Positions 42,597 through 64,000 of a DNA stretch of 64,000 nt are shown here, in pieces; the first letter of the stretch is position 1, and every line of letters starts with the position of its first letter. The stretch is from assembly GCA_003599025.1 (NCBI GenBank), contig QZIL01000002.1, forward strand, positions 1,371 to 65,370. Reading direction: 5' to 3'. This stretch comes from Nitrospiraceae bacterium. Lineage in GTDB: Bacteria; Nitrospirota; Thermodesulfovibrionia; UBA6902. The position numbers and the translations under genes are program-made. The notes beneath the pieces are model-generated. The model saw nothing but the letters and a program-made list of their open reading frames with translations. It was not told the origin of the DNA and made no database searches.

Positions 42597-43040
42597 TTAT
42601 TTTACTTCTTCTGTTTCCTTGATCCATGTTTCAATCTTTGCCCTGATCGCGTCTCTTATCTTTCTTGTCTCCCGGAGTTTTTCTTCATGTGTCCCTTTCA
42701 GCGCTGAAGGGTCGGGAAAGCTCCAGTGCAGCCTCTTCGCAAATCCGGGAAAGACTGGGCATTTCTGGCCGCTGGTTTCATCACACACGGTTATAACATA
42801 GTGGAACAGCTTCCCCTGCCTGAGGAAATCAAAAACACTTTTTGCGACATTCCGGGAAATGTCCGTCCCTGTTTCCTTCATGACCTCCACGACAAGGGGG
42901 TTCAGTGCGCCCGGTTCAAGTCCTGCGCTTTCAGCCTCGAACCTGCCGGCCCCGAGGGTGTTTAAAAACACCTCGGCCATCTGGCTGCGCGCGCTGTTAT
43001 GGATGCATACGAAGAGGACTTTCTTTTTGCCCACGATCAA
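42597..43040 (-). CDS. arsC: Arsenate reductase, LMW-PTP (thioredoxin-coupled) type
   Basis: [16 protein letters not shown] is the CX5R P-loop. The distal cysteines lie in [18 protein letters not shown]. Confidence 0.85.
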
Positions 43041-43388: not shown

Positions 43389-44402
43389 TTACAGCTGTTT
43401 TGCAGTGCTGATTTCATCTTTCAGAAGTATCTCCACAGACGCCTTCCCGCGCAGGGACTTTGCGTAGAGATCAGCTTCCTGTTTTGCCTTTTCCTCAACG
43501 AGGGACTGACGTATCTGATCCTTGACGCTGTCATATGCCAGGATGGTTTCCGGCTTTCTTTCGCTGACCTTGAAAATATGAAACCCATATCCGGTCTCTA
43601 CAACATCGCTTGTTTCTCCAGGCTTCAGACTGAAGACAACGGCTTCGAGTTCCTTTTCAAGCTGCCCTGTCCTGACATAGCCTATATCGCCGCCGTCCGT
43701 CCTTGTAGGACCATCCGACTGCTCACGCGCAAGGGCCGCAAAATCCTGCCCGGCCTTCAGCTTCTTCATGATCTGGTCGGCCTTCTTCCTCGCCTCCTGT
43801 TTGCGGGAGTCCTCCAATTTAGGGTCAAGGTGAATGAGGATATGGCTTGCCCTGACCTGAAGCGGCTGCTTGAAGAGGTCCAGACGGCCCTCGTAATAGT
43901 TCATCATTTCGCTGTCAGTGACCGCAACCTTTGCGGCAAAGCGCCGTTCAATAAACTGCTGCACTGCGCTGTTTCTCTCCAGCCTGGCCCGCAATATATC
44001 CTCCGACATATTTTTCCTGCTTAACTGGTTTCTGAACTCCGTCACGCTCGGGAACTGCTGCATCAGCGCATTTATCCCCTTATTGACAGAGTTCTCATCC
44101 GGCTTGATGCCTGCCTTCCGGCTCTCCTGATTGAGGATTTCGAGCCGGACCAGGCTTTCAAGAACATCTACCTGGACGGCTTCGACCTGGCGCGTGGTAA
44201 GAGGCCTTCCAAACTCCAGAAGCGCCCTCTGTATTTTCAGGACCGCTTCATCAAATTCCACCTTTTCAATCGGCGCCCCGTTCACCATGGCCGCTTTATT
44301 GACCGGCTGGGGCTTCGCATCTTCCGCCCTGGCGGGAAAGGACATAACCATGAGACTGACAACCATTAACACGATATGATAAGTTAAGACTCTTCTCAGC
44401 AT
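43389..44402 (-). CDS. Periplasmic SurA/PpiD-like chaperone with parvulin (PpiC) PPIase domain
   Basis: It has a signal peptide and a SurA_N-like helical part, then RASHILIHL...DFAALAREQSDGPTRTDGGDIGYV...GYGFHIFKV, the parvulin rotamase core. Confidence 0.85.
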   Translation of the reverse strand: MLRRVLTYHIVLMVVSLMVMSFPARAEDAKPQPVNKAAMVNGAPIEKVEFDEAVLKIQRALLEFGRPLTTRQVEAVQVDVLESLVRLEILNQESRKAGIKPDENSVNKGINALMQQFPSVTEFRNQLSRKNMSEDILRARLERNSAVQQFIERRFAAKVAVTDSEMMNYYEGRLDLFKQPLQVRASHILIHLDPKLEDSRKQEARKKADQIMKKLKAGQDFAALAREQSDGPTRTDGGDIGYVRTGQLEKELEAVVFSLKPGETSDVVETGYGFHIFKVSERKPETILAYDSVKDQIRQSLVEEKAKQEADLYAKSLRGKASVEILLKDEISTAKQL

Positions 44403-44418
44403 TTTTCTTTACCTCACT

Positions 44419-45105
44419 TTATTTATTAATTTTCTTTTTTTCAATTTCCTCACGGTACTGCTGGAGGAGCTGCTCCAGCTCCACCTTCTTTACCTGTGTC
44501 AGGGGCTCCTTCTCCAGAAGGATTGTCCCCAGTCCCTTGTTCCTGTAATTCGTCACCAGCTCCTCCGCGATAATACCGAGGTCGGCATTATTCGCTTTGC
44601 AGCGGCCCAGGTCCTGCGCCGTCTTTTCCTGTTCAGCCTGAACAGTCTTTTTCTCAGCCGCTGACTTTTTTAACTCTGCCTGAAGCGCCTGCTTTTCTTC
44701 GGCCAGCTTTTTCAACTCACTGTCAAGGTCCTTGTTCTTCCGTCCCGTTTCCCGGGCCTCTTTATCGGCCCTGACAGCCGCCTCTTCCGATGTTTTGACC
44801 CTCAGCTCCAGCCCCTGCATCTGTCCGTTAAGTTTATTTAACTGCGCATCAAGTGTCTGCTTCTCGCTTCCGAGCCTGTCCAGTTCCGCCTGGGCCTGCT
44901 GTTCGGAAACAGACTCCTCATATTTCCCCTCCGCCATCTTTTTTTGCATGAAGGCGACTTTCTTTCCGGCCTCCTTGATCTTTTCATGCGCGGCCTCCCG
45001 CTCCTTATTGACTCTGCTGTTGCCAATGCTCAATCCGATGATCAGGCCGATAATGAGCGCTGCTACGGGGATTATGATTTTTAAAGGCCGGGACATACTG
45101 TTCAT
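44419..45105 (-). CDS. Membrane-anchored coiled-coil protein
   Basis: An N-terminal TM helix (IIIPVAALIIGLIIGLSIG) is followed by about 190 aa of heptad-rich Glu/Lys/Gln sequence. I recognise no family. Confidence 0.6.
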   Translation of the reverse strand: MNSMSRPLKIIIPVAALIIGLIIGLSIGNSRVNKEREAAHEKIKEAGKKVAFMQKKMAEGKYEESVSEQQAQAELDRLGSEKQTLDAQLNKLNGQMQGLELRVKTSEEAAVRADKEARETGRKNKDLDSELKKLAEEKQALQAELKKSAAEKKTVQAEQEKTAQDLGRCKANNADLGIIAEELVTNYRNKGLGTILLEKEPLTQVKKVELEQLLQQYREEIEKKKINK

Positions 45106-45120
45106 TTTTTACCTCCAGAC

Positions 45121-46977: not shown

Positions 46978-47083
46978 TATGTTCTCTCATGACCTCTCTT
47001 TCTGGGAAGTAAAACCAAACACTCATTAAGCAGTTTTTTTTAACTTCTGACTTCTCACTTCTTACTTTCCAACTTCTTTGTTG

Positions 47084-47797
47084 TTAGCTCTTAAAAGTCA
47101 TTTTGATCTTCATCGTACGAGGCATGCCGTCAGGCGGCGAATCGCTGAAACTGATATTGCCCAGGACCTGGTTTACCGTCTCATCCATTTTATGGTTCCC
47201 TGATGAGCCTATGATCCTGTGCTCAACGATATCGCCATCCGTGTCCACTTTCAATTTCACAACTACCTGAAGCGTTCCTCTTGGCAGCCCGCCTTCCATG
47301 TCCCAGAGCTTCATGATCCTTTTATGGATCTCACTTTCCACAAAGTGTGCATATCCGCCGTATTTAGACAGGAGAGACAGATTGCCGAGCCCGTTCCCTC
47401 CTTCTCCGGCAAGGAGGCTTCTCCCCCCTTTTTTCGCAACCAGCCCGAAGGCGTCGCTCCCCGCTGTGCCGTCCGAATCCACGCCGAGGCTGTCCCCCGC
47501 AGGCGCGTTGTCCGGCTCACCGGCAGGCCTGTCATTCGAGGCCGCCTCTTGCGGGACCTGAGCAATAACTTCCTCCTTCTGCTCCTGCCTGACCGGCTCA
47601 GGCTCCGGCGGTTTTTCCTTTATCTGCGGCGGGGGCGGCTTCAACAGGGTCACCATGGTAACGTTGTTTTTTTTCTGCGGACTATCGTCAGATATCACCA
47701 TTATTATGAAATAAACTGCAACAACGCACAGAGCGACCATCAGGGCAATGAACCCCCATGAGGCAGCGGACATTTTTTCAGTTTGTCTGTCGGACAT
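47084..47797 (-). CDS. tonB: TonB-family energy transducer
   Basis: It has an N-terminal TM anchor, a Pro-rich spacer (LKPPPPQIKEKPPEPEPV) and a C-terminal TonB_C-like domain (LQVVVKLKVDTDGDIVEHRIIGSSGNHKMDETV). Confidence 0.8.
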   Translation of the reverse strand: MSDRQTEKMSAASWGFIALMVALCVVAVYFIIMVISDDSPQKKNNVTMVTLLKPPPPQIKEKPPEPEPVRQEQKEEVIAQVPQEAASNDRPAGEPDNAPAGDSLGVDSDGTAGSDAFGLVAKKGGRSLLAGEGGNGLGNLSLLSKYGGYAHFVESEIHKRIMKLWDMEGGLPRGTLQVVVKLKVDTDGDIVEHRIIGSSGNHKMDETVNQVLGNISFSDSPPDGMPRTMKIKMTFKS

Positions 47798-47806
47798 ACG
47801 TTCCTC

Positions 47807-48217
47807 CTATTTGACGAGCTTTTGCGTCACGAGCGCAAGCTGGGTAATCTCCAGCCTCTGGAGCAAATCCAGCACCTCTATGACGCCTTTGTACGCTATT
47901 TTTTCATCTCCCCGGATCACCACGGGCAAATTAGGGTCCGCAGCTTTGTATTGGCGGAGCCTGTCTTCCAGTTCTCCCATAGTCACAGGGAAGCTGTCGA
48001 GATACATGGTCCCTTCCGAGGTGATGGTGATCGCCTTTGTCGTGGCCTTGACCTTGCCGGCAGCCGCGCTCGCCTTTGGAAGGTTGACGCTGATCCCCTG
48101 TACGGACGCCGTCACTACGATCATGAACACTAAAAGGAGGTTCCATGCAAGGTCCAGCATGGGAACGACGTTGATCTCATCGTATATCTCATGTTCTTCG
48201 TAGGGGTTATGCCTCAT
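47807..48217 (-). CDS. exbD: ExbD/TolR-family protein
   Basis: From ATG 48217 it reads MRHNPYEEHEIYDEINVVPMLDLAWNLLLVFMIV, the canonical ExbD TM with conserved Asp. This is followed by VNLPKA....ITITSEG..YLD and VVIRGDEKIAYKGVIEVLD. It overlaps the exbB-like gene by 11 nt. Confidence 0.85.
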   Translation of the reverse strand: MRHNPYEEHEIYDEINVVPMLDLAWNLLLVFMIVVTASVQGISVNLPKASAAAGKVKATTKAITITSEGTMYLDSFPVTMGELEDRLRQYKAADPNLPVVIRGDEKIAYKGVIEVLDLLQRLEITQLALVTQKLVK

Positions 48218-50063
48218 GACGCGGCCCTTTCTCCTCTTCCAGCTTAAGAATGAAGTCATCGATGAAGACATTGACGTCCGCATTCATGTTCTTGATATTG
48301 CCGGTAATATAGCTGCTTGCGAACAGGGCTGGAATTGCGATCAGGAGGCCTGCCATGGTACAGGCAAGCGCAGAGGCGACCCCGGGCGCAATGGCTGCGA
48401 GGTTCGCTTCGCCGCTCTCTGCAAGGCTTGCAAAGGTGTTCATGACCCCCCAGACCGTGCCGAGAAGACCCAAAAACGGCCCGCCCGCAACACTCATGTT
48501 CATGATAACCATGCCAGCCGCCAGTTTTCTGCTTTCATACATGGCCTGCTTTTCCACCGCTGCTTTAAACCCGTTCATGGCCCTTTCCGACAACCCGCTC
48601 CCGTGTTTTGATGTTTCCCCTTTTTTCTCCATCAAACGCCTCAGCTCAACACAGCCTGCGCGATACACCCGGTAGAGCGTCGAATGCTGAAAGTCCTGTT
48701 CCTTGTCAAAGAGGGACATCGGATTATCCATCCCTCTGAAATTCTCCGAGAAGGTTTCGTTCCCTTTTCCGGCAAGACGGAATATTGTTATCTTCTGCTG
48801 AAAGATGTACACGGACGCGAATCCCATGAGGATCAGAAATCCGATAATAAGCCAGCCGTCAAGGGTGATGGTCCTGATAATGACCTTCATGAGATGGACT
48901 GTCAGCGATTCTCCGCTGCCTCCGCCTTCCTCCGGCTCCATGTAAGACATCAGCATGCCGTCCGGTCCCTGGCCCTGGAAGGCGGCCCTTATCCATCCGG
49001 CAGATCTGGCTGTGCCGGACAATTGCATCTCGTCCACATCTCCGGTAAAGACATTGCTCCCTTTCACCGATGCGCCGATGATGATGTCGGCAGCCGGCGC
49101 AGGGACCATTCCCTTGAGTTTGATATACGCGGCCTGTCTGCCGTCGAGATACAGTGTGATCTGGTTGTCAGGGTCTGCTGTCACGGCCAGATGGTGCCAG
49201 CCCTTCGGGGTCAGTACCGCTGTTTTCGGCGTCACCGTCGCCTGCCCCTTGCCGGTACTGAGACTACAGTAGACCTTCGATTCTTCCACTCCAACAGTGA
49301 ACGACTGCTTCCCGTCGTCCCAGGATAAAAAATGCGTATTGCCTTCAGACTGGTTGACGCGGACCCACGTGGAGAAGGTAAACCCCTTGGTAAAATTAAG
49401 CGACGACGCCCTGGTAATAGTCATCAACTCTCCGGCCCCGCTGAACTGGGCGCCGTTTCCCACAACTGAAGGGACACCGAGCTTCCCTGAAAACGAGGCC
49501 GCGTGATTGCTGTAGGCCGTTGCGTCACGCGGATTGCCATCCTCATCGCCCAGGTGATAGACAGCCACCTGGTTCACATCGTACGTGCCGCCCGCGTCCT
49601 GGCCGTCAGGTGCAGAATCATTCCCATAATACATCCATATGGAATCCTGACTGCCGCCCCCGGATATCCTGGGGACCTTGACCCATATGAGGGCGATCTC
49701 TTCTATAGGATCAAACTTCTCTATGTGATATTTCAGGGGAGACTTATCGTCAAGGCTTACAAACCTGAGGTCCGAACCATCCTCTTTTGCGCTTGGAAAA
49801 CTGAAGTTGCCTGTATGCAGGCGGACCAGCAGCGGGACATCAGCGACATTCTCATCGATTCCGGCCCCGTTTGAAGAAGTATCAAATTGAATCTTCATCC
49901 TCTGCTGCCACTTCCCGTCCCACCATGCATTAGCATCAGGGACCATAAACAGTCCGATAGTAATCATCAGCAACACAATCAGCGCTGAGATTTTATTCAG
50001 CCTCAGTTCCGATAAAAAGGCCCCCGGAACACCTCTTTCAACTTTGTCTTTCTTTCTGTCCAC
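48207..50063 (-). CDS. Fusion protein: DUF2341 + LamG/concanavalin-like lectin domain + MotA/TolQ/ExbB proton channel
   Basis: A signal-anchor is followed by WWDGKWQQRMKIQFDTS...VPLLVRLH...GSDLRFV (DUF2341). Next comes FTFSTWVR...GWHHLAVTAD...ITLYLDG..VDEMQLS (LamG-like). It ends with three TM helices containing GGPFLGLLGTVWGVMNTF...IAPGVASALACTMAGLLIAIPA (ExbB core). Confidence 0.8.
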   Translation of the reverse strand: MDRKKDKVERGVPGAFLSELRLNKISALIVLLMITIGLFMVPDANAWWDGKWQQRMKIQFDTSSNGAGIDENVADVPLLVRLHTGNFSFPSAKEDGSDLRFVSLDDKSPLKYHIEKFDPIEEIALIWVKVPRISGGGSQDSIWMYYGNDSAPDGQDAGGTYDVNQVAVYHLGDEDGNPRDATAYSNHAASFSGKLGVPSVVGNGAQFSGAGELMTITRASSLNFTKGFTFSTWVRVNQSEGNTHFLSWDDGKQSFTVGVEESKVYCSLSTGKGQATVTPKTAVLTPKGWHHLAVTADPDNQITLYLDGRQAAYIKLKGMVPAPAADIIIGASVKGSNVFTGDVDEMQLSGTARSAGWIRAAFQGQGPDGMLMSYMEPEEGGGSGESLTVHLMKVIIRTITLDGWLIIGFLILMGFASVYIFQQKITIFRLAGKGNETFSENFRGMDNPMSLFDKEQDFQHSTLYRVYRAGCVELRRLMEKKGETSKHGSGLSERAMNGFKAAVEKQAMYESRKLAAGMVIMNMSVAGGPFLGLLGTVWGVMNTFASLAESGEANLAAIAPGVASALACTMAGLLIAIPALFASSYITGNIKNMNADVNVFIDDFILKLEEEKGPRHEA

Positions 50064-50066
50064 CTC

Positions 50067-53000
50067 TTACTCCTCCTCTTCCTCTTGAACTAAATCTATG
50101 ACTTTCACGTCCAGCCACTTCATTAAGATGTCATCTATCATCTGGGCCGCCTGGGCAGTCCTTTCCGCAGCTATGCCGGGGGTCGCATCACCAGCCATCT
50201 GGCCGGGCTGCGCAACGGAGCCGGCGCCGCCTGTGAGACCTCCAAGGGCCGCGCCGCTTGTAGACGCCTGAGGCACGCCGACAGACCCTGCCGAGAAACT
50301 GATATTGGCCGAATTCTTGACTTCCAGCGCCGCAAGGATGATCTTTCCTCCTGTGATCCCTGCCTCGCCTGCATCGATCACGCCGCTTGGGGCGGTGAGA
50401 TGTATATCTCCAGGCTCCGGCATCGCCAGAGGTCCCGACCCGTCAGGATCAAAGGTCACGGCGCGGATGCCGCTGCCAAGGACTGGGGGGCTGAACACTT
50501 TTCTGTAAATGCCTGAGCCGGCGGGATATTCCTCCATCCTGGCAGGCGAAGCGCTGACAGCCGTTCTCGATCCCCGTCCGGCATTTATGTTTCCCTCGTC
50601 GCTCCAGATAGTGATATCACCGCCATAAAAGGTCATGATCCGTGATTCGTTTACGTTCACGTCATACCCGGTAAAGATGTTGATTGCGCCGCCTCCCCCC
50701 GTCCATACGCCGGTAAAGTCATCACTTTTCTGACCGGCAATGGGCAAGGCTGTCTTGCCGAGGTTCATGCTACCAGCGGCGATAACAAAGATATCGGACT
50801 GCCCGATCGACGTTCCTATCTGAGAGGCGATCATGTTTATGTTGCCTTCGCCTGAGGGTGTTCCAAGCAGCGGTTTGATTGTCGCGTCCCTTGTTGTCTC
50901 CCGAAGCTCGGCAGCCTCCGCTGATTTGCCTTCAGAAAGCAATTCCGCATACTGATCGCCTGCATCGCGAATATCGTCAAAGAAGGTCCTGATCATGTCG
51001 GCAGGCAGGTTCTGATCATACCCCGACAAGACGACGAGTGTGCTCTTTTCAGTGCCTAACAGGACATTGTTGCCGTTTCCGATCGCCTGGAGACCGCCAT
51101 ATATCAATTTCTGATCTACCACGGCGTTGTTTGAAGTTCCCAGGTCGATCGAGTTGCCTGCCTGGACCAGGAAAACGCCCGGGCCGCCCTGGATCAGGCC
51201 TCCTGTTTTGCTCTTTTTTTCATACTGCATCCGGATATCGCGCCCTGCCTTGATCATGGTGACATCCCCCGTACTAATGTTCTGTCCCTCATAGGTCATA
51301 TCGAGGATGTCCCGTCCTGCCCGTATCTCGGTCTTTTTCGCCGCGTAAAGTCCGAGGTTTCTGATGTCCCTGCCCGCGCTGATCCCGATTTCCCGGGTGT
51401 CGCCGGAGTGCAGCGGCGAGGCAAGTGCCTGGAGTACGGCATCTTCAGGCTTAAAGTAGCCATGATGGTTATAAAGAGTCCTTTCCGTATTCCAGGTCAG
51501 ACCGCCGTTACTTACTAAATCTTTGTAAACCCGGAAGAGGCCATACCAGTACTTTGGAGCGATATCGGACATCGTGATACCCGCCGCCTTGCCGGAATAA
51601 CTGGATGCCGTGCGTACTGCCTGTACAATATCCACCCCGGCATCAAGCCGAAGCCTGCCATCCGGAGAAGATGTCAGGGTAAGGTCATCACTGAGCAGTA
51701 GGATGTTCCCCCCGGCTTTAATTTCTACATTGGCCGGTAAGATTTTCGCGAACTTCGATATATCATGTCCAGTAGGTGTATATAGCGGAGATACACCGGC
51801 AAAGGTCAGATCTTCCCCTGCCTTCAGGCTGATACCGGTATATTGCGTGTAAGTGCAGTTTATCCAGTAGTATTGATTTAATTGATCGCTTGCAAGTGAG
51901 GGGTTCAACACCGAGCCGATCTTCATCGCTCCCTCAGCGGCCACGGACATCCGGCTGTCAAAGAGCTCGATCTGCTGGGACTTATCAGCGCTGCCGAAAT
52001 TCCCCATGGCGTGAATCTCTCCTTGCCCCATCCTGTTCAGTAACCGGCCATCGACGTTGCCGCCGGCATAGATGGCGAGGTCACCTTCGCCAAAGGCGCC
52101 TGCCTGGGTCAGGAAATCCGAACCAGTGCGGATGTAAAGATCGCCCCCCCCCATGGCGGCAAGACCGGACGTCGTATCAAACTGTTTCTTTTCTTTGGGT
52201 GATGATAAGGTATAAACAGACTGCCGCGCATAACTTGCCGAGAACCAGCCGTATTTTTCCAAAACGGTGTTATTCCGCGTGCTCCCCCCGGGCTTCAAGA
52301 TGGGCGTGAAATAATCCCAGGCATTCGTAGCAGGAGGCATGGCGCTGGTCCATTCTCCATTTGAAATCGTCCCCACATGCCGGCCCACATCCAGAGTGAT
52401 GTTCCCGCCATCGGCATATCTCCAGTAATATGTGAGGGTGTTGGAATTAGGGGTGTTAAAGTAATTGTCTTTATCAGCCAGCATGGGTTTAGGCTTACTT
52501 GACGGGTCATCATAAGGCGGGTCTACATCTGTCGTATCATCTGTTCGAAGCATACCAGTCGTGCGAATAGCGCCCAGGGTGCTCAGACCGGATACTATTG
52601 CCGTATTGAGCTGGAGGTCCCGGCCGATATCTATAGCGATATCCCCGGTGGCGGTCTGTATGGCGCCGCCGTTGATTATAAGGTCCCGTCCGATGTCCCC
52701 TTGTATGTCCCCGTAAGGAGAGGCAAGGTTATATCGCATGGTCGGATCAATCATAAAGCCTAACGGAGTGTCCTGCCCCCTGCCGACAAGCGTGTCTCGC
52801 CCCGAGGCGAATCTGACAGGCGCGTGTTCGGTGTAAACAACTTTCTGGTCCGCGATTTTCAGGTCCCCTTTGCCATGGACAACTGCAAGGGGGGCTGCGC
52901 CAACAGTGTACGAACCCGCGACGAGGTTGAATGCCCAGGAATCCCTGCCCGCGCTGCCCGGCAGGTTTGCCAGGGACGTAGGATGGTCGACAAGGTTGTT

Positions 53001-56000: not shown

Positions 56001-59000
56001 GGTGACCCAGATGTTGTTGGAGTTGATCGCATCGTACAGTACCTCCGTATCTCCGGCGGTTGTCAAAACACTGCCCCCGGCCAGATAGATGCGGCTGCCG
56101 GCAGCGGTGGTAAGCGGGTTGTCATCATGATAAGGGTCCTCGTCGATGACAGCAGTTGTGAGTGTGATAGTCCCCAGGGGAGCTGCTAATGTGCCCCTGT
56201 GTTCGATCCCTGTGCCTGCCTCAACCGTAAGGTTTCCGCCTGCCGAGTAGATTGGACCGCCCGTACGTGTATCCGAGGGGAGAATGGTAATCTTGCCGTC
56301 GGCATGCAGGGTGTAATCAGAGTATATATTGGGATAGATTGTGCCGAGTGTATCCTGATACGTGTAAAAATTCCCCGGATAGATGCGGTCTGCTTTAAAA
56401 ATCATATCGCCTGCTGTGACAAGCTTGCCGGGTTTTACAAGCGCCTCTCCGGCTTTGCCTGAGAGCTTGTATGACGCCTGGCTCAGGCGAATGTCCCGCC
56501 TCGCTTCAATATGGACGTCCTTAAACCCGGTAAACTGCACGGTCCCGATCACATCGACCCATGTGCCTTTCAGGTTAATGAGAGCGTCTCCTGTCACGCC
56601 GCTTACCCCTGGTGTTTGTGTAACGGGGTAGTAACTGTTTGCCAGAACGATCCACGGCGCTTCAAGAGTCACCCCGTTCGACCCGGGACCCTCGATTTCC
56701 GGGGCATCGAGGGTCAACTTTCTGTTGAGTGCGACATTCATGGGCCCGCTGAACCGGAGAGATTTCCAGCTCCTCAGGGTCAGGTCATCGAAACCCAGGT
56801 CCTTATAACGGACAATGTCTTCGGCCCTGACAACCAGTGGATTGTTTTCATTTTGCCGGCTGATGGCCAGGGCGGCCCTCTTTATCCCTGCCATGTTCAC
56901 CCCGGTCTTCACATCGCCCATCCAGTCCATAGCATTTATGTAATTCAGAGTAAGGCTCCCGGGGTCTCCGGCCTCCTGGAAAGTGATAATGCTTCCATCC
57001 GCGGCCCTTATCCTGTTCTCGATTCTTTCAGACCCGGAGATGTCAATAATGGAACCTTCCTCCAGGGTCACATTGTACCCCGTAAGGGTAACGCTCCCTG
57101 CCTTGACCGGCTGATAATTCACCTCAAAGCCCTTTGGCGTTGTTGAAGGATCAGGCCGGTTGTAGCCTCCGGCCAATATTCTCGCGGTCGATTTGATTAT
57201 CATATCCGCGCTATTGCCTTCACCTTTAAGATTGATCGCACCCCCGCGAGCTTCGAGTGTCCCTGCTATCGTAACAGAGGTTTTCGCCTTACCCGAACCT
57301 GAAAAAGTGATTTCCCCCCCGGGCGCCGTCCGGACCGAGGCCCTTTCGGAAACAGTAATTCCAGCCTGATCGACATCAATGTCGTGCTGTCTTAAATTTC
57401 CCTGGTTATATCCCGTGGCCCCGGTAAAGTCACTGCCGGCAGTCCCTTTGAAGGAAGATGTCCCGGCCATGTATGCCGTGGACTCACTGAGCCTGAGGAG
57501 ATCGGGCCGGACGGGGACCTCAGCGCCCGCGACATTTGCCGCCTGCAGGGCAGACACAGGGGCGTTCAGCCGTACCAGAGACGTGGAGATGGCAATGTCG
57601 GGATCTATAACAATGTCTCCATAACTTTTAAGCGTGATGTTCGTAAAGCCTGTATCGTCGAAGCGATCGCCGGCCAGCAGGAGCGTCCCGCTGTTCAGAT
57701 CATCTTTGTACAGACCGCCAGATGCCGCATTAAAACCCGACCAGTCATTCCCTTCGGACCCCACACGGATCTCCGTGGATGTCAAGGTGATGGAGCCTCC
57801 TGATATCTTCCCGCTCCCATCAGCCAGTGCATATCCCCGGAGATCTCCATCAAGCATGATATTCGATCCCTGGATGGTCAATGCGCCTGCATTCGCGCCC
57901 TTGACTTTGCCCCCGGGGTCAATAGAATAACCGCCGCTTACATCCGCAATGGCCCCGGCCTGTATGAAGACACCATCTCCCAAATCCGTTTCATCAAGAA
58001 TTTCAATAACGCCGCCCCCGGTCAGGCCGTATCTGAAATCGGTATTGCCTGCTTTTCCCGCATGAGTATTGTCGATCCTCTCCCCTGAAACATCCAGCAT
58101 GCTTCCTTGTCCGAGGACAATCCTCTCCTGCAGCGGAACAAAGCTGCCTTCCTCTTTAAGGTTCCCGTTATAATCCGTGGGACTTGTAAGGTTCTCCCTG
58201 ATTAACATCCTGATCGTACCGGCAGGCGCCTTAATCTTCCCTCTGTGCTCAATCCTGCGCGTATCAATTTCAAAAGCGCCTCCCGGCTGCAAAGTAATAC
58301 CGGCCCCCTGCGCCGTCTGGACAGTCTCCAGCGCCGCTAACTGTATGGTATCCAGTTTCGCGTCATTCAGGGTCTTCGCTGAAAGGACAGTAGGCTGTTT
58401 CTCCGGCAAGCTGGAATCAGGGGTGATACCGGAATGGGGTGATGTTTCGGAAAGGATTAATATAGAAGACGGCTGGCTGCTCAACGCTTCATTATATGTA
58501 TCAATATCGCCTAAGATAAACGTGCCTGCCTTCGGAGCTTCAAGGCCGCGCGCCGCAGAAATGGCATACTCCTCTGATCCCCTGTCTGTAGTTACAAGAT
58601 TCTGGTGAATTCCACGCATCACACTCCCGTCGAGCCGACCGTCCAGGTAGACCGTAGCCGCTTTCAACCTGAGTGTACCTGCATCGCCGCCCTTTAACTG
58701 GCTGGGGACATGCGTCTGCAGCGGAGATGCGCCGCCGTAATAAAGGCCGTAATATGAGTCCTTAGTGCCGAACCGTTCAAATACCTTCTCATACTGCCCG
58801 ATAGTCTTGTCATACCTGATATTCAAGGGGGCACTGCTGATATCATATATCTTCTTGCCTGACACTAATTTTGTTGAATTTATAAAACCCTCGGCATAGC
58901 GGGCCGCGCCGCCGGAAAAATCAAGCAGCGCCCCCTCTTTGATAATTATGTCGCCCGCATTGACTGTTATGTCTATCATCCCGGTCTGGGACTTCCACTT

Positions 59001-60473
59001 CCACGTTCCGGTTTTGTCGTCTTTTTCTTTTCTAAGGGCGCCCCCGATGCTGCGCTCCAGGGCCGTCCTTTCCCCGCTCAGGTACACCTGTGAAAGATCG
59101 CCGATGGCAGTGCCTGAAGTGACAGGGGTTGTGATCTTCATTCCCGGTACGAGACCGCTCTTCTGTCCATAGGCATCGCGGAGCTCGACACTGGTCAGTT
59201 TGAAGTCAGAGAGGATTGATGGAGGAAGATATGCCTCAACGCCGCTTACATCGATACGGCTGCCTGCTTCGAGATATACCCTCTGTCCGGCTTTCAGCAC
59301 GACATTTCCTGCAGGCGCAGTAACGGCCCCCCTCAGCTCGATCGAGCCTGCTGACGTCTCTGAAATACTGCCTTCAGGATCCAGAATATCCAGGCCCTTG
59401 ATGGTCACCTCAGGCTGGATAATAAATGTATCACTGACCGTTTCTGTTGTTGACGGGTTGACCGGAAGGGAGATTTCACTGTTCTTCCCTGTTGTTACTT
59501 TGCCTGCGGCCCTGAGCTCTACCTCTCCTTTGTTGTTCTTGAAGGCGGTCATGGACCGAATCGTCCCCATCTGATCAACAGCTCCTCCGTACATGCCTGC
59601 CAGTCCCCCATCGGCATACAGCCGTCCCCCTTCCTGGTTCACGGAATAGCCGGACCCGGCTTGTTTTACGATGACATAATAAGCCACTCTATTATTGTTA
59701 TGTACCAGATCTGCATCAGTACCCGCAATCAGGCCTATCTGCCCTGCCGGGGTGTTAATCACTCCGGCATTTTCTGTAAAAGGCCCGAGGAGAAAGACCT
59801 GCCCTCCGTCTTTGGCGTTTATCTCTCCATGGTTCGAGACGAAGGCGTTAGGATCAAGCGTTGCCGTGTCGTCAATCTCTTTGCGGTAATTCTCATGTTT
59901 GAATTTGAGGACGTTGCCGATAAAATCCTCATCCTTGATGTTCAAAGCCGAGGCCGCGAGGCTGCCGACGTTGATCCTGGAGCCAGGGCCGAAGAGGATG
60001 CCGTTCTGGTTTATGAGATATATCTTTCCGTCTGCTGTAAGTTTTCCTAAAATGTAGGAAGGGTCCTTGTCCCATATCCGGTTGAGGGCGGCCCAGTCTG
60101 CATTTCCCTTCTGGTCGAAACGGACCTCTGAATCAGCTCCGATATCAAAGGTCTTCCAGTTTATTATGGCCTTTTCTTCGGTCTGGTTAATTGTCATTTT
60201 ATTGCCCTGAATACCCGGCGTTTCCGCGCCCCTCTCAATGTTGTTTAACTCTGGAAGAGCATGCGCCGATGGTCCATTGAACGTCCTCATCCCCCCGGAA
60301 AAGCCGGGGATAGTGACCCCGGGACCTGTTTTATTGGGTAAATTTATATTAGGAGCCGCGGACTTTCCGCTGTATACGCCGGGTTGGGCGGCCAGTACGA
60401 AATCAGGAAGCAGCACAAGGAGGCACAAAATCACCCGGAGCATCTTGTCTATAAAGCCCTTTAACATATTCAT
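50067..60473 (-). CDS. Giant two-partner-secretion exoprotein (TpsA; filamentous haemagglutinin family), 3468 aa
   Basis: After the signal peptide, the N-terminal TPS domain reads NQTEEKAIINWKTFDIGADSEVRFDQ...ALNRI...SYILGKLTADGKIYLINQNGILFGPGSRINVGSLAASAL. About 3000 aa of Gly/Asp/Thr/Ala-rich beta-helix-type sequence follow. The conserved C-terminal region GDITIWSDEGNINAGRGS... is like the C-terminal domain of FHA-family proteins, and the acidic tail is QEEEEE. Confidence 0.9.
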   Translation of the reverse strand: MNMLKGFIDKMLRVILCLLVLLPDFVLAAQPGVYSGKSAAPNINLPNKTGPGVTIPGFSGGMRTFNGPSAHALPELNNIERGAETPGIQGNKMTINQTEEKAIINWKTFDIGADSEVRFDQKGNADWAALNRIWDKDPSYILGKLTADGKIYLINQNGILFGPGSRINVGSLAASALNIKDEDFIGNVLKFKHENYRKEIDDTATLDPNAFVSNHGEINAKDGGQVFLLGPFTENAGVINTPAGQIGLIAGTDADLVHNNNRVAYYVIVKQAGSGYSVNQEGGRLYADGGLAGMYGGAVDQMGTIRSMTAFKNNKGEVELRAAGKVTTGKNSEISLPVNPSTTETVSDTFIIQPEVTIKGLDILDPEGSISETSAGSIELRGAVTAPAGNVVLKAGQRVYLEAGSRIDVSGVEAYLPPSILSDFKLTSVELRDAYGQKSGLVPGMKITTPVTSGTAIGDLSQVYLSGERTALERSIGGALRKEKDDKTGTWKWKSQTGMIDITVNAGDIIIKEGALLDFSGGAARYAEGFINSTKLVSGKKIYDISSAPLNIRYDKTIGQYEKVFERFGTKDSYYGLYYGGASPLQTHVPSQLKGGDAGTLRLKAATVYLDGRLDGSVMRGIHQNLVTTDRGSEEYAISAARGLEAPKAGTFILGDIDTYNEALSSQPSSILILSETSPHSGITPDSSLPEKQPTVLSAKTLNDAKLDTIQLAALETVQTAQGAGITLQPGGAFEIDTRRIEHRGKIKAPAGTIRMLIRENLTSPTDYNGNLKEEGSFVPLQERIVLGQGSMLDVSGERIDNTHAGKAGNTDFRYGLTGGGVIEILDETDLGDGVFIQAGAIADVSGGYSIDPGGKVKGANAGALTIQGSNIMLDGDLRGYALADGSGKISGGSITLTSTEIRVGSEGNDWSGFNAASGGLYKDDLNSGTLLLAGDRFDDTGFTNITLKSYGDIVIDPDIAISTSLVRLNAPVSALQAANVAGAEVPVRPDLLRLSESTAYMAGTSSFKGTAGSDFTGATGYNQGNLRQHDIDVDQAGITVSERASVRTAPGGEITFSGSGKAKTSVTIAGTLEARGGAINLKGEGNSADMIIKSTARILAGGYNRPDPSTTPKGFEVNYQPVKAGSVTLTGYNVTLEEGSIIDISGSERIENRIRAADGSIITFQEAGDPGSLTLNYINAMDWMGDVKTGVNMAGIKRAALAISRQNENNPLVVRAEDIVRYKDLGFDDLTLRSWKSLRFSGPMNVALNRKLTLDAPEIEGPGSNGVTLEAPWIVLANSYYPVTQTPGVSGVTGDALINLKGTWVDVIGTVQFTGFKDVHIEARRDIRLSQASYKLSGKAGEALVKPGKLVTAGDMIFKADRIYPGNFYTYQDTLGTIYPNIYSDYTLHADGKITILPSDTRTGGPIYSAGGNLTVEAGTGIEHRGTLAAPLGTITLTTAVIDEDPYHDDNPLTTAAGSRIYLAGGSVLTTAGDTEVLYDAINSNNIWVTEDKKKPGQFDAADDTNIVTLPFGQETLPQKGIELEADETIVREGAKIDASGGGSFFAYRFLPGIEGTGNPLEKSGRYIVFKDNGFQMPGTSVYLKGGGGLSEGMYTMVPLGPGNAQNARYAFMPGAYILELQAGPSIPGPWLVSKYGYPLVVGYAGVADTTILGTRPQVYSVRSASDVMTEGHFDKQGMIAGNAGDLTVKGNTTIIDGDLNAGPLASIYRGGKISLSGKNISVEQMTGSLLPGGFGYETSFDSTAYLMDLKDKLTIDARGLSNREFREVELGYLNPDTPQDKLNTESIIFESGTYLEAAGISVSARDNITIMEGTSERPTTLYARTEKDKDSGEGVLTLNTPGSLSAGPDSLLHAAHNIIFEVNKVDEIQGALQVDNSAITLKSRAITFTEARKTSNDAGLFLNKKLLQAFSQFEDMTFIAGYSDVATEIRFMDAYDLIAAESITMDAARIIGDNGPGVTLAAPAVTLTNSGDRTDASSTAGHDTEAGIFAVNASEQVTVGSGDILLGGFRTIALNSAGDVVFKGKGSLATGNADLEITAARVTTGAAHEAGGTYQPPDFRVIAGAGKNDLNPANLIRMMRPDNGQAATTGVPGGTLEFAARKIELGTVLQVDGGDIKLTTAGAKGEDGKFLAPSDEDGIILKDGGSIIARGTDDAPGGRVVLATNFIDETGQEQSGKIELQNGSLIDVSAGAQGDAGIITLSAPVGGVMIYGDVKGAAGKKKDKSIGRGGSLVVDTNKFAKEIIEFSTLISKVEEGGFTASLDLRARSGDIDIDNGEMLKAHKIKLTADGGAINVDGIIDASAYEGSYYPDGGTVELYAQDDLNLDGSILAGGINGGEGGYVQLSSSEGDVIVNAEEINVSGSEGGIVYLRARRNDSEGFRDVAISLNHSVTGASALYVEAVRRYGYDGFNFTSALDDAHAHYANAPVERLSNKVDADTTSFHYLPGIEVVSIGDINWNTQWDVSGVRFGGEQEPGVLTLRAGGNLYINNNLVDHPTSLANLPGSAGRDSWAFNLVAGSYTVGAAPLAVVHGKGDLKIADQKVVYTEHAPVRFASGRDTLVGRGQDTPLGFMIDPTMRYNLASPYGDIQGDIGRDLIINGGAIQTATGDIAIDIGRDLQLNTAIVSGLSTLGAIRTTGMLRTDDTTDVDPPYDDPSSKPKPMLADKDNYFNTPNSNTLTYYWRYADGGNITLDVGRHVGTISNGEWTSAMPPATNAWDYFTPILKPGGSTRNNTVLEKYGWFSASYARQSVYTLSSPKEKKQFDTTSGLAAMGGGDLYIRTGSDFLTQAGAFGEGDLAIYAGGNVDGRLLNRMGQGEIHAMGNFGSADKSQQIELFDSRMSVAAEGAMKIGSVLNPSLASDQLNQYYWINCTYTQYTGISLKAGEDLTFAGVSPLYTPTGHDISKFAKILPANVEIKAGGNILLLSDDLTLTSSPDGRLRLDAGVDIVQAVRTASSYSGKAAGITMSDIAPKYWYGLFRVYKDLVSNGGLTWNTERTLYNHHGYFKPEDAVLQALASPLHSGDTREIGISAGRDIRNLGLYAAKKTEIRAGRDILDMTYEGQNISTGDVTMIKAGRDIRMQYEKKSKTGGLIQGGPGVFLVQAGNSIDLGTSNNAVVDQKLIYGGLQAIGNGNNVLLGTEKSTLVVLSGYDQNLPADMIRTFFDDIRDAGDQYAELLSEGKSAEAAELRETTRDATIKPLLGTPSGEGNINMIASQIGTSIGQSDIFVIAAGSMNLGKTALPIAGQKSDDFTGVWTGGGGAINIFTGYDVNVNESRIMTFYGGDITIWSDEGNINAGRGSRTAVSASPARMEEYPAGSGIYRKVFSPPVLGSGIRAVTFDPDGSGPLAMPEPGDIHLTAPSGVIDAGEAGITGGKIILAALEVKNSANISFSAGSVGVPQASTSGAALGGLTGGAGSVAQPGQMAGDATPGIAAERTAQAAQMIDDILMKWLDVKVIDLVQEEEEE

Positions 60474-60490
60474 TGGTCCCTCCAGGCCGA

Positions 60491-62092: not shown

Positions 62093-62098
62093 CTTTCG

Positions 62099-62989
62099 CT
62101 ATTTCCCCATGCCGCTTGCGGCCAGCTTTGCGTGCTCAGCCTTGTCGACCGTCACGTCACAGAACAGTTTTTCCCCTCCGAATGGATGCCTGTAGTTAAT
62201 GGTAATAATTTCGTCAGTTACGTCGGTAATACGGCCTACAAGGGGACCGCTGCGGACCAGGCTGCCTTTGCGGGCTTTGATATCGAGTTTATAATTCTTT
62301 TCATCATGATAAATACGTCCCAGTCCAAAAGGTGTCTGTATCACATCTCCGGGAGTAGCGTTAAAACGGACCGTTACCTTCCCCCCGGTGACAGCGGTAA
62401 CTCTCCCCGGGAATGACGGGTCGATGCTAAATGATTGCCCTACTTCCGGTGACTTGCCGGTCCGGTCCGCGTATTCGTCCACCGGCATTGTCATTACCTT
62501 CGGCCGCGTGCGAACACGCGCCATTCGCAGTATGTAATACTCTTCGTCTTTCGCCGATGACTCCAGGGCAGTGATCTCCAGTTGACGCCGCTCTCCCTCT
62601 TGCATGCCGGCCACCGCTCTGGCAAGCCGTTCCAGGACCGCTTCATCAAAGGGCTCTTCAGGCCTTAATGGGAACGGCTCATCAGGGCGGACCGCTACAA
62701 CCGAGAGGGGGCCGGTCTCTTTTCTCGTGACAAAAATACCGGACTTCGACTGTTCATCGGGGACGCTGCCGGAGGCCGCGACCACTTCTCCGCTTTTCAA
62801 ACGGCATAAATAACTGATTTCAGCCCTGTCCCCGGTCTCAACAATCCCGGCCTTTGCAGTGTCTGAGACATCACCTTGAACATCCTTAGCAGTGTCTGCT
62901 GCCCAACTAAACACGGATTGCGTCAGCAGCAAAGCCGCCGTCAAACTGATCATAGTCCCGCGGGAAAATATCCGGGGATTACCCCTCAT
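62099..62989 (-). CDS. Secreted FKBP-type PPIase, SlyD-like with insert-in-flap domain
   Basis: Start taken at ATG 62989 (GGGGGAGAca-ATG), giving MRGNPRIFSRGTMISLTAALLLTQSVFSWA; the track ORF extends to 63079. GDRAEISYLCRLKSGEVV, VAGMQEGERRQLEI, and INYRHPFGGEKLFCDVTV match FKBP/SlyD (DFNHPLAGKxLxFxV). Confidence 0.7.
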   Translation of the reverse strand: MRGNPRIFSRGTMISLTAALLLTQSVFSWAADTAKDVQGDVSDTAKAGIVETGDRAEISYLCRLKSGEVVAASGSVPDEQSKSGIFVTRKETGPLSVVAVRPDEPFPLRPEEPFDEAVLERLARAVAGMQEGERRQLEITALESSAKDEEYYILRMARVRTRPKVMTMPVDEYADRTGKSPEVGQSFSIDPSFPGRVTAVTGGKVTVRFNATPGDVIQTPFGLGRIYHDEKNYKLDIKARKGSLVRSGPLVGRITDVTDEIITINYRHPFGGEKLFCDVTVDKAEHAKLAASGMGK

Positions 62990-63044
62990 TGTCTCCCCCA
63001 GCGATTGTGTCCGCGCAAAAACCTGTTTTTGATATGCCGATTTT

Positions 63045-63251
63045 TTATAAAGCTCCATGATGCACACCATTCCCTCCATTTTTCTTTATCCCGTTCCCTC
63101 CATGCATGAGCGCCGTCTGTGCGACTTCGACCTCCTCGGATTTTTCTACCCGCCCGAGGCTGCCCTGGGTGAAGTTGATTTTTAGGTACCCGCTGAATTC
63201 CTCATCGGAAAGACTCTTGATTGCATCGGCAAGTCTTTTCATTCTGTCCAT
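63045..63251 (-). CDS. Small protein, YezD/DUF2292-like; first gene of the TPS operon
   Basis: Start at ATG 63251 (ACAGGAGGTttatca-ATG). FSGYLKINFTQGSLGRVEKSEEVEV resembles the DUF2292 pattern (GSVTIxxxxGRVVQIEKTEK). Confidence 0.4.
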   Translation of the reverse strand: MDRMKRLADAIKSLSDEEFSGYLKINFTQGSLGRVEKSEEVEVAQTALMHGGNGIKKNGGNGVHHGAL

Positions 63252-63493
63252 TGATAAACCTCCTGTCATAAGTCAAACCTCGTGATATGAACTTATTGAA
63301 TTACACTTCAATGCCACACATTGGAAAGTAAATGCAACAGAGAATTACAAGTTGATGACTGGTATCGTACCACCCGCTTTGTTAATACATCATTACATGG
63401 TTGTTAAACTTTTATTAAAAGAAAGTAAGGGCGTCGGAGTAAAGATTTTTTCCATTCAGCCGATAATGAATGCCAGGATATGCAACACTATTA

Positions 63494-63584
63494 GTCGTTT
63501 TCGATAAAGGCAAACCATGGGCAACCATGGGACGCAAAGCCACGGGTCCCGATTATCGGGACAGCCGGGTCGCCGAAAAAACGA
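63494..63584 (+). ncRNA. c-di-GMP-I (GEMM-I) class riboswitch aptamer
   Basis: The conserved core is GGCAAACC(63509-16)-AUGG-GCAA-CCAU-GGGACGCAAAGCC(63529-41), with a 6-bp CCAUGG/CCAUGG stem capped by a GNRA loop. The second hairpin is CGG-GUCCCGA-UUA-UCGGGAC-AG-CCG, followed by GGGUCGCC. The closing P1 stem pairs UUUUCG(63498-503) with CGAAAA(63574-79). This is a near base-for-base match to the invariant blocks of the V. cholerae Vc2 aptamer as I remember it. Confidence 0.8.
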
Positions 63585-63638: not shown

Positions 63639-64000
63639 ATGTTCAATCCGCAGAGGCTCATCGTCATTATTTTTTTTCTCATCGGCATTACTGCATCAGG
63701 AAGCAATAAGACAATCTCAGACCACACCTTAAAACCCCACTTTATTCCCCGCGATGTTTATTATTCATGGCAGTGGCATCTGCCCGGGATAAAGGCCCCT
63801 GCCGCATGGGACATTACAAGGGGAGACCCGGGGGTCATCATTGCGGTGCTTGATTCAGGAGTGGACAGCGCACACCCGAACTTAAGCGGAGGCAAGGTGA
63901 TGAACGGGTATAATTTTGTCGATGATACTTCAAATACATTGACCGATTCCTATGGACACGGGACCATGATCGCGGGAATTGCAGCGGCCCCCACTGGAAC
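63639..64000 (+). CDS. Subtilisin-like (S8) serine protease, N-terminal part; gene runs off the window end
   Basis: Not in the ORF track because there is no stop in the window. It reads MFNPQRLIVIIFFLIGITASG (signal) ...WHLPGIKAPAAWDITRGDPGVIIAVLDSGVDSAHPNL (catalytic Asp) ...DSYGHGTMIAGIAAA (catalytic His). Confidence 0.85.
   Translation, partial: MFNPQRLIVIIFFLIGITASGSNKTISDHTLKPHFIPRDVYYSWQWHLPGIKAPAAWDITRGDPGVIIAVLDSGVDSAHPNLSGGKVMNGYNFVDDTSNTLTDSYGHGTMIAGIAAAPTG

Follow-up and report, generated by a model that had tools for sequence, protein, structure and literature searches.

The 64,000-nucleotide (nt) stretch of Nitrospiraceae bacterium contig QZIL01000002.1 analyzed here (the window) contains a 20-kb operon of ten minus-strand open reading frames (ORFs) that run head to tail from 63269 to 43389. 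In order, these encode a small protein, an FKBP-like peptidyl-prolyl isomerase (PPIase), the transporter TpsB and the giant exoprotein TpsA of a two-partner secretion (TPS) system, three proteins related to a proton motor (an ExbB/TolQ fusion, an ExbD/TolR-like protein, and a TonB/TolA-like transducer), a Porin_5 outer-membrane protein, a coiled-coil protein, and a SurA-like PPIase. An earlier reading made from the letters alone (the sequence-only reading) had listed these ten genes, and the existence and coordinates of all of them were confirmed in the ORF list; the ten genes and their conserved linkage confirm the observed TPS-motor cluster. The domain calls, obtained from Pfam and NCBIfam profile searches of the ten proteins, bear out the gene list apart from two weaker labels: "YezD-like" for the small first protein, which has no Pfam or NCBIfam family and a weak Atlas lead to DUF2292/YezD, and FKBP for the second, which is sub-threshold for the single sequence.

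The junctions range from an 11-nt overlap to a 55-nt gap, as proposed in the sequence-only reading, provided that two starts are placed internally: that of the exbD-like gene at M23 (48217), set by homologues of ~135 aa, which gives a 136-aa product and the 11-nt overlap, and the probable start of the FKBP-like gene at M31 (62989), which leaves the 55-nt gap. The tpsB and tpsA genes are 17 nt apart. A larger gap does separate the tonB-like and porin genes, measuring 106 nt and not the 107 nt first counted. The 3-nt spacing noted between tpsA and the exbB-like gene requires a GTG start at 50063 and is lost with the 586-aa database call, which gives ~99 nt. Promoter and terminator scans inside the operon were uninformative, with counts not above those in shuffled sequence.

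Conserved linkage of the secretion pair and the motor

The fusion protein has ~900 homologues, and nearly all of the best 120 have its three-domain DUF2341-LamG-ExbB architecture; the sources named include Nitrospirota, Thermodesulfovibrionales, and "Deltaproteobacteria". A scan of one genome per species yielded 28 loci with full-length or near-full-length matches. Gene order at the loci was traced by tblastn with the window's ten proteins, and the succession of TpsA, fusion ExbB, ExbD, TonB-like protein, Porin_5 protein, and coiled-coil protein is kept across Nitrospirota, Geobacter, Geoanaerobacter, Desulfuromonadaceae, Syntrophobacteraceae, Desulfosarcina, other Desulfobacterales, and Desulfobulbus elongatus DSM 2908 (L021). 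TpsA adjoins the fusion ExbB in essentially every assessable locus (L001-L033), with tpsB lying between tpsA and the motor in L002, L013, and L018. A single TpsB orthologue (50-61% identity) is adjacent to tpsA in five of five distant genomes, each with the FKBP-like gene directly upstream of tpsB. No locus retrieved had the DUF2341-LamG-ExbB architecture in any other context. A candidate TpsA-less variant in an NC10 metagenome-assembled genome (L004, 9788-11566) was rejected as a counter-example because of its carbamoyl-phosphate synthase junction. There tpsA is missing, and the fusion protein has lost its first ~90 residues, in whose place the first ~57 residues of the large subunit of that enzyme are joined in frame; this is probably a rearrangement or deletion or an assembly chimera.

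Strong DUF3739 matches, which mark TpsA, are present in six of the 151 genomes of an unbiased Nitrospirota sample (this one included). In these six, a DUF2341 frame of 610-650 aa lies no more than 1 kb from the match and a full-length Porin_5 gene at a distance of 3-5 kb, a combination found in none of the other 145. In an unbiased Desulfobacterota sample, DUF3739 occurs in five of 201 genomes, all five with DUF2341 within 1 kb. Over the two phyla, DUF3739 and DUF2341 are thus adjacent in 11 of 11 genomes. The sequence-only reading had judged the linkage unlikely to be accidental and had named its conservation in related genomes as a check beforehand; the linkage is conserved in all 11. Since the cluster is present in 2-4% of the sampled genomes, the system is rare and patchy, and it is inherited as a block. 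The G+C content of the operon (window 43000-63300) is given as 50-56% or 52-56%, compared with 45.9% for the assembly and 45-49% for the flanks, and none of the genomes sampled from the class to which the host belongs was found to carry the cluster. Together these observations fit acquisition as a unit, suggesting that the operon arrived by horizontal transfer.

Table 1 Features of the operon and its upstream flank in window coordinates (c-di-GMP, cyclic di-GMP; TM, transmembrane)
Feature	Coordinates	Strand	Basis and details
Small protein, operon gene 1	63045..63269	-	74 aa for the longest ORF; 68 aa if M7 (63251) is the start
SlyD/SlpA-like FKBP, predicted periplasmic, enlarged insert-in-flap domain	62099..63079	-	Profile of orthologues
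TpsB, Omp85-family transporter, 533 aa	60491..62092	-	ShlB, POTRA_2
TpsA, 3468-aa beta-helical exoprotein	50067..60473	-	TPS aa 89-305, DUF3739 aa 3284-3401
TpsA C-terminal tail, aa 3397-3468	50070..50285	-	Predicted disordered; strand motif at end
Motor A subunit, DUF2341-LamG-ExbB/TolQ fusion, 618 aa	48207..50063	-	DUF2341, Laminin_G_3, MotA_ExbB
Motor B subunit, ExbD/TolR-like	47807..48283	-	ExbD domain
TonB/TolA-like transducer	47084..47797	-	TonB_2, TonB_C, tonB_Cterm
Porin_5 outer-membrane protein, 618 aa	45121..46977	-	Porin_5 profile and model
Coiled-coil protein, predicted inner-membrane-anchored, 228 aa	44419..45105	-	N-terminal TM helix
SurA-like parvulin PPIase, predicted periplasmic, 337 aa, last operon gene	43389..44402	-	Rotamase, SurA_N_3
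c-di-GMP-I-GGC aptamer	63500..63578	+	RF03167 73.3 bits versus gathering 59, E 6e-16; divergent intergenic region
Peptidase_S8 subtilase, 352 aa, start	63639..64000	+	Peptidase_S8 6e-49; runs to window-equivalent 64697

The secretion pair, the motor, and the outer-membrane proteins

The pair has the two hallmarks of type Vb secretion, an exoprotein with an N-terminal TPS domain and an adjacent Omp85-family transporter with a POTRA domain. In Pfam, TpsB matches ShlB (3e-22, 79.9 bits) and POTRA_2 (7e-15, 55.1 bits), and TpsA matches TPS (5e-24) and DUF3739 (3e-29); the TPS domain of TpsA passes its cut-offs (PF05860, 85.9 bits versus 33.5; TIGR01901 adhes_NPXG, 76.6 versus 29.1). The TpsA family comprises at least 385 clusters, and the median length is 3350 aa (interquartile range 3239-3443). 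Twelve full-length members from different lineages are collinear at 30-48% identity, which is highest in the TPS domain and over residues 3201-3400, and the range along the whole length is also given as 30-60%. The uniform length across phyla suggests a filament of defined length, and collinearity at fixed length fits a mechanical element and not a polymorphic toxin or an adhesin that expands freely. A reading as a contact-dependent growth inhibition (CDI) system (CdiA/CdiB/CdiI) was rejected. The C-terminal 420 aa are 36-53% identical across phyla with the conserved tail at their end, and the gene after tpsA is the motor A subunit in nearly every locus (tpsB in three), not an immunity gene.

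In a model of the last 420 residues of TpsA, beta-helix coils with a helical hairpin insert lead into a well-predicted DUF3739 cap, and the pLDDT value (predicted local distance difference test) is below 50 from residue 349 of the model onwards (the final 72 residues). A fold search of this model against the PDB returned nothing significant, only generic beta-helices. The low-confidence tail ends with a helix, the strand motif D-x-F/I-x-x-K-W-L-x-V-x-V-x-x-F/L, and an acidic run, the motif lying at aa 3447-3468 (50070-50135). It is present (as KWLxVxVxxF) in the 21 aligned homologues and degenerate in a few (KMLVFRF in L021, KVLKVEV in L025). Since TPS substrates exit N-terminus first, this tail would be the last part of TpsA in the periplasm and so looks like a handle; the motif is a candidate TonB-box-like handle. 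Complex prediction with the TonB C-domain had been suggested in the sequence-only reading, and was run with the TpsA C-terminal tail as partner. The score was 0.45 (0.46, 0.43, and 0.45 in individual runs) versus 0.02 for the best control, with a partner pLDDT of at least 47 and at least 88% of contacts in agreement between runs. The mark applied is reached by 58 of 80 solved complexes and by two of 110 mismatches; at scores of 0.60 or below, only seven of the 80 solved complexes reach it, as do both passing mismatches. The prediction lends weak support to binding of the TpsA tail by the TonB-like C-domain.

The motor A subunit matches DUF2341 (1e-18), Laminin_G_3 (7e-22), and MotA_ExbB (9e-25) in Pfam. 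Its predicted topology consists of a signal or anchor segment, periplasmic DUF2341 and LamG domains (aa 48-393), and a channel with three TM helices, the first of which would be joined to the ~350-aa DUF2341-LamG module. If the channel assembles like the ExbB and TolQ pentamers of known structure, every stator would bear a crown of five of these modules. DUF2341 appendages on stators of this kind were listed, with their function unexplained, in a 2025 survey of MotAB relatives (PMC12505986). The genome also encodes several other giant proteins with DUF2341 domains, in frames of 1330-3339 aa, which have no relationship to the motor fusion (C34, 277-513 and 19072-19302; C87, 11433-11663; C7, 30631-35715).

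The sequence-only reading had called the three motor genes ExbB, ExbD, and TonB. The domains are as named, with PF01618, PF02472, PF03544, and TIGR01352 above cut-off, such that ExbB, ExbD, and TonB-C domains are encoded together. The identity as a TonB system does not follow, as TolQ and TolR score higher and the equivalog models stay below cut-off. The A subunit scores 126 bits against tolQ (cut-off 221) and 81 bits against exbB (cut-off 206) in NCBIfam, and 93 and 71 bits against TolQ and ExbB in the PDB, respectively. The B subunit, a match to Pfam ExbD (8e-26), scores 82 bits against tolR (cut-off 127) and 62 bits against ExbD_2 (cut-off 123). The motor residues are intact: channel threonines T536 and T569 are invariant across 26 sequences, and the B subunit keeps the transmembrane Asp ("PMLDLAW"). 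The TonB-like protein combines a TM helix without His, a Pro-rich spacer, a Gly-rich motif, and a TonB-type C-domain (aa ~149-237). It matches TonB_2 (3e-11), TonB_C (2e-6), and tonB_Cterm (34.5 bits versus a cut-off of 27.1) and falls far under the cut-off for TonB PRK10819 (16.5 versus 377). Its TM and Pro-rich part has a weak match to GltJ (E 0.003), far below cut-off. The Gly-rich linker motif LGxDxxGxAGSDAFGLxxKKGGR (window 47420-47490, aa ~104-125) is nearly invariant in the 23 homologues aligned; it might be where ExbD or the LamG crown docks.

Consistent with the earlier claim that the operon has no plug-containing receptor, Plug and TonB_dep_Rec domains were found neither in the window nor on the contig that carries it (C2). 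Four TonB-dependent receptors are encoded in the genome, on C6, C14, and C16 of an assembly that is 70% complete. Whether this TonB has a receptor partner elsewhere, a point raised by the sequence-only reading, is partly answered by a separate canonical TonB and ExbB beside the receptor on C16, since the operon motor is then not needed to explain ordinary receptors; it is a dedicated extra copy. Another TolQ-like gene lies on C40, and Pfam detected no TolB or Pal domains among the ten operon proteins. Judged by its profile scores, the motor is a distinct paralogue of the TolQRA/ExbBD-TonB class, neither the housekeeping TonB system nor Tol-Pal.

The 618-aa barrel protein matches Porin_5 (E 1e-121) in Pfam and has no match among PDB sequences. 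In the AlphaFold model, built from a 23-sequence alignment (mean pLDDT 68, barrel mostly above 80), a disordered and helical stalk of low pLDDT, predicted to be periplasmic, extends to aa ~210 with a long helix at 165-207, and a barrel of ~16-18 strands with a C-terminal Phe spans 215-617. In the fold comparison, Veillonella OmpM1, a stalked porin, ranks first (E 1e-12, TM-score 0.73 by target), then OprB, MOMP, OmpF, and DcaP, in agreement with the coiled coil plus barrel anticipated in the sequence-only reading. A plugged receptor was ruled out on the model, which has a porin-size fold without a plug domain. At the N-terminus, the window copy has a lipobox (IFG↓C), the Nitrospirota copies have a lipobox as well, and most other homologues have repeated helical "EALxxLLxxKGxISxEEA" motifs; the homologue alignment contains no universally conserved strand motif there. 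No SLH, OmpA, or Pal-like peptidoglycan-binding domain was detected in the protein with Pfam. Short Porin_5 proteins of 414-458 aa, lacking the stalk, are present in other Nitrospirota (L096 5059-7408, L097 3750-6091, L098 4696-6072) and adjoin genes for PstS-like PBP_like_2 proteins in L096 and L097, which hints that the barrel family may be derived from anion or phosphate porins. The 228-aa coiled-coil protein has no family in Pfam, NCBIfam, or Atlas. Its gene is kept downstream of the porin gene in most loci and is missing in the Geobacter-type loci L008-L010, where the porin ORFs (601-651 aa) are among the longer ones, hinting weakly at a common structural role for the two proteins.

Two PPIases bracket these genes. 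The FKBP-like protein has a signal peptide ending in ...SWA↓AD and had been labeled SlyD/FKBP in the sequence-only reading. As a single sequence its FKBP_C and FKBP26_IF matches are sub-threshold in Pfam; a profile of six orthologues restores the label at E 1e-8 (insert-in-flap-domain FKBPs; 1ix5 1.2e-8, SlpA (4dt4) 7e-6, SlyD 4e-3), confirming at profile level a SlyD/SlpA-type FKBP with an insert domain. The SurA-like protein matches Rotamase (1e-28) and SurA_N_3 (5e-13), and its gene often follows the cluster, with full-length counterparts at the same position in L002, L003, L004, L010, and L028 and merely partial matches in L008 and L009. Homologues of the small first protein (50-60% identity) lie near the cluster in L002, L005, L007, L017, L087, and L089, at positions and on strands that differ between genomes. 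In some Desulfobacterota, a thioredoxin or FKBP-thioredoxin gene is located between the FKBP-like gene and tpsB (L088 2667-3950; L090 10914-12113). One version of the cluster has two glycosyltransferase-like PMT_2 and TPR genes upstream (L090 5665-9634), which may glycosylate the filament.

Cyclic di-GMP riboswitches and neighboring genes

On the 5' side of the first operon gene lies a divergent intergenic region and then the plus-strand subtilase gene, with a c-di-GMP-I-GGC aptamer upstream of the latter. Neither this riboswitch (63500-63578) nor the conserved genes farther upstream had been noticed in the sequence-only reading. Some TpsA proteins are matured by subtilases, for example FhaB by SphB1, and by analogy the subtilase could process or shed the TpsA filament. 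A second c-di-GMP-I aptamer, outside the window at G000:C2:69916-69992, heads three genes encoding a secreted 245-aa protein (ORF245), a 430-aa PBP_like_2 protein, and an Lcl_C-like protein. The tail of the 245-aa protein (VPxP...LLGSGLLGLVGxRRK) is PEP-CTERM-like, and the PBP_like_2 protein is Cys-rich. The second riboswitch, ORF245, and the PBP_like_2 gene together occupy G000:C2:67824-69992 (window-equivalent 66454-68622; L095 3424-5593). The whole 3.13-Mb assembly has six c-di-GMP-I-type matches.

The pairing of ORF245 and PBP_like_2 genes near the TPS-motor cluster recurs in at least seven other genomes. In the Nitrospirota genome G001 (L087), a riboswitch, ORF263, and genes for PBP_like_2, the small protein, the FKBP-like protein, TpsB, and TpsA are contiguous on one strand. 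In D. elongatus, an aptamer lies between tpsB and tpsA and is one of just two in the genome. Close to the cluster, L005, L007, and L017 repeat a sub-module made up of the small protein, ORF245, and PBP_like_2; among the loci scanned for aptamers, which did not include L007 and L017, L005 and L089 contain one, and L089 also has a PBP_like_2 match with an unverified ORF in the place of ORF245. Overall, aptamers accompany the cluster in at least three distant genomes. They lie on the same strand 5' of a system gene in G001, at the head of the extended operon, and in D. elongatus, before tpsA. The two flanking aptamers of the present genome would serve the divergent subtilase gene and the upstream ORF245-PBP_like_2 genes. 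From its genomic setting, the system appears to belong to a c-di-GMP-controlled surface program.

Just upstream of the riboswitch-led genes is a group II intron (G000:C2:70916-72726; L095 6517-8327) with RF00029 and RF01999 matches and a 416-aa reverse transcriptase/maturase ORF. An exosortase-like gene (PF09721, 30 bits) is located at G000:C2:74920-75972, a few kilobases past the PEP-CTERM-like proteins, and a stronger exosortase at C14:200-961. On the other side of the operon, genes for a low-molecular-weight phosphatase (42597-43040), a zinc-ribbon protein (42184-42483), and an HMA_2 protein (41816-42244) were excluded from the system, as they have no counterpart in the conserved loci.

Proposed role of the motor and comparison with known systems

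The reading we favor, with a probability of about 0.4, is that a private proton motor is coupled to the TpsA filament through its periplasmic tail in a co-inherited surface machine. The TpsB/TpsA pair would export a fixed-length beta-helical filament of ~3350 aa, with TpsA threading out through TpsB N-terminus first. The FhaB prodomain and the secretion arrest of CdiA are precedents for a C-terminus kept in the periplasm, and by analogy we assume that the disordered tail of TpsA would also stay there. We infer that the C-domain of the TonB-like protein would then grip the KWLxVxVxxF strand by strand addition, and that a motor of the TolQR/ExbBD class would transmit force from the periplasmic side through the TonB/TolA-like arm. 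Proton flow might thereby pull or hold the tail, gating the completion of export, anchoring the filament under load, or releasing it. The DUF2341-LamG domains would form a periplasmic crown on the A subunit, and the OmpM-like stalked porin and the coiled-coil protein an envelope-spanning scaffold. The SlyD-like and SurA-like PPIases (with thioredoxins in some genomes) would chaperone the giant chain and the two barrels, and expression would be tied to c-di-GMP, i.e., to a sessile lifestyle. The riboswitch link and the strict conservation of length point to a mechanical role in attachment or aggregation.

A fuller version of this reading is held more tentatively. The cluster may represent a new class of energized type V secretion or adhesion machine, c-di-GMP-switched, in which a 5:2 proton motor grips the TpsA tail for gated export or release, load-bearing anchoring, or retraction. 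In the same version, horizontal transfer would have carried the machine between syntrophs and anaerobes living in sediment (Nitrospirota, Geobacterales, Syntrophales, Desulfobacterales, and Desulfobulbales).

Several observations weigh against coupling through the tail. By the calibration of the complex-prediction tool, wrong passes outnumber right ones at the level reached by the TonB-like C-domain with the tail unless the prior is strong, and the motif in the tail might serve instead as a signal to a chaperone or to TpsB or as a folding cap. The window genome has no own-strand riboswitch directly upstream of the first operon gene, so that c-di-GMP control of this copy would be indirect. Both the pairing of short Porin_5 relatives with PstS-like binding proteins (L096 and L097) and the divergent 430-aa PBP_like_2 gene that travels with the cluster (within ~10 kb in the checked loci of at least seven genomes) favor energized uptake. 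On that explanation, TpsA, exposed on the surface or shed, would capture a scarce or insoluble substrate much as in HxuABC, with a porin in place of the plugged receptor; the Porin_5 protein would be an import channel gated via its stalk by the TonB-like protein, and PBP_like_2 would take the cargo. Import is the usual work of ExbBD-TonB systems, and HxuABC sets the precedent of TonB-dependent import in which a TPS pair takes part (PMC4873976). However, the barrel of ~16-18 strands is porin- or OmpM-like, without a plug or a universal N-terminal strand motif, and the conserved genes of the cluster include no inner-membrane importer, of the ABC type or any other. A conserved 3350-aa length and C-terminal tail also exceed what a simple binding protein needs, and c-di-GMP control is typical for adhesins and matrix and not for nutrient import. 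We consider uptake unlikely.

The strongest of the alternatives, though still doubtful, is a Tol-Pal-like tether or gliding-type transducer that has no direct grip on TpsA, in which the motor, arm, stalked porin, and coiled coil would stabilize or move an outer-membrane platform bearing TpsB and TpsA, much as Agl-Glt serves the adhesin CglB. The A and B subunits are nearer to TolQ and TolR than to ExbB and ExbD; the order of two motor genes, arm, outer-membrane protein, and coiled coil parallels tolQ-tolR-tolA-tolB-pal-cpoB; and the barrel's best fold match is an outer-membrane attachment porin with a periplasmic stalk. Agl-Glt itself joins a motor of the TolQR type to proteins with TonB C-domains, barrels in the outer membrane, and an adhesin (PMC11761067), and the GltJ match of the TonB-like protein points the same way, although it is far below cut-off. 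Such a tether leaves unexplained why the 3' end of tpsA adjoins the motor in the great majority of assessable loci and why TpsA has a conserved disordered tail. In addition, the porin has no detected SLH, OmpA, or Pal-like peptidoglycan-binding domain, and the cluster lacks cytoplasmic track or polarity proteins like those of Agl-Glt. It is very improbable that the operon merely co-regulates a TPS adhesin and an accessory TonB/Tol paralogue that share a lifestyle and work independently. Sharing an operon is no proof of interaction, and the complex prediction is weak, but co-occurrence and adjacency hold in 11 of 11 genomes from two phyla, and neither specific part occurs alone in the Nitrospirota sample. 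Gene order is kept where the proteins share just 30-50% identity, the G+C offset and the absence from the host's own class point to transfer as a unit, and the DUF2341-LamG-ExbB architecture was found in no other context among the loci retrieved.

All parts of the system are from known families, and we could not find a description of their combination; no account of the TPS-motor linkage was found in the literature searched, which left out most subscription journals. Type V secretion, including TPS, is taught as self-sufficient at the outer membrane, without ATP or a proton gradient there. In every genome examined, the conserved and horizontally mobile set of 10-12 genes holds TpsA/TpsB and their own motor together. 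If the coupling is true, a TPS exoprotein would for the first time be seen to receive proton-motive force, challenging the no-energy view, and the DUF2341-LamG appendage of ExbB-like stators would gain a function. A short, conserved motif at the C-terminus is the candidate handle, the motor depends on one essential Asp, and at least one host, D. elongatus DSM 2908, is cultured. The hosts are syntrophic and metal- or sulfur-cycling anaerobes, which lends the system ecological relevance.

The sequence-only reading had regarded Oar/PopC as the only precedent for TonB-dependent protein export; this was too narrow, as HxuABC (PMC4873976) and Agl-Glt (PMC11761067) are also relevant. In HxuA/HxuB/HxuC of Haemophilus influenzae, a TPS pair is coupled, in its genes and in its function, to a TonB-energized outer-membrane step (PMC4873976). 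HxuC is a classical plugged receptor that works with the housekeeping TonB, and HxuA is ~100 kDa, whereas the present cluster has a private motor, a 3468-aa filament, and no plugged receptor. In Agl-Glt of Myxococcus, a TolQR-type proton motor, inner-membrane proteins with TonB-like C-domains, barrels, and an adhesin constitute a trans-envelope machine (PMC11761067, PMC9946355). GldLM/SprB of Bacteroidota is comparable by analogy. Homology to Agl-Glt stops at the class of the motor; its adhesin is a VWA lipoprotein and the one here a TPS filament, and the genes of the cytoplasmic platform are not in the cluster. Stalked trimeric porins of the OmpM/DcaP type resemble the structure predicted for the 618-aa protein, a porin-size barrel with an N-terminal periplasmic helical stalk. 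Here the family is Porin_5, and no SLH domain was detected.

With two-partner secretion as in FhaB/FhaC and CdiA/CdiB, the system shares the N-terminal TPS domain, the POTRA and Omp85-type barrel, and the giant beta-helical exoprotein. Classical TPS systems have no dedicated energy source at the outer membrane, whereas here a motor gene closely follows tpsA in the great majority of loci. The polymorphic toxin and immunity gene of classical TPS/CDI are both absent, TpsA having a conserved DUF3739 cap and tail, and the operon, unlike classical TPS, encodes its own periplasmic PPIases. In common with ExbB-ExbD-TonB, there is a three-component motor with an intact proton path and a Pro-rich arm with a TonB-type C-domain, and the proposed grip is likewise on a short, TonB box-like strand motif. 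It differs in that the cluster has no 22-strand plugged receptor, the conserved His is missing from the arm's TM helix, the A subunit bears a 350-aa DUF2341-LamG module, a secreted protein carries the candidate box at its C-terminus, and orthology does not extend to the equivalog level. Tol-Pal is, to our knowledge, near-universal, compared with 2-4% of sampled genomes for this cluster, which also has no TolB beta-propeller and no Pal/OmpA-like peptidoglycan-binding lipoprotein. The two are alike in A and B subunits that score best against TolQ and TolR and in the order of motor, arm, outer-membrane partner, and coiled coil. Strand addition is also how TolA holds TolB, by a terminal peptide of TolB that is disordered, and the same mode is proposed here for the tail of TpsA.

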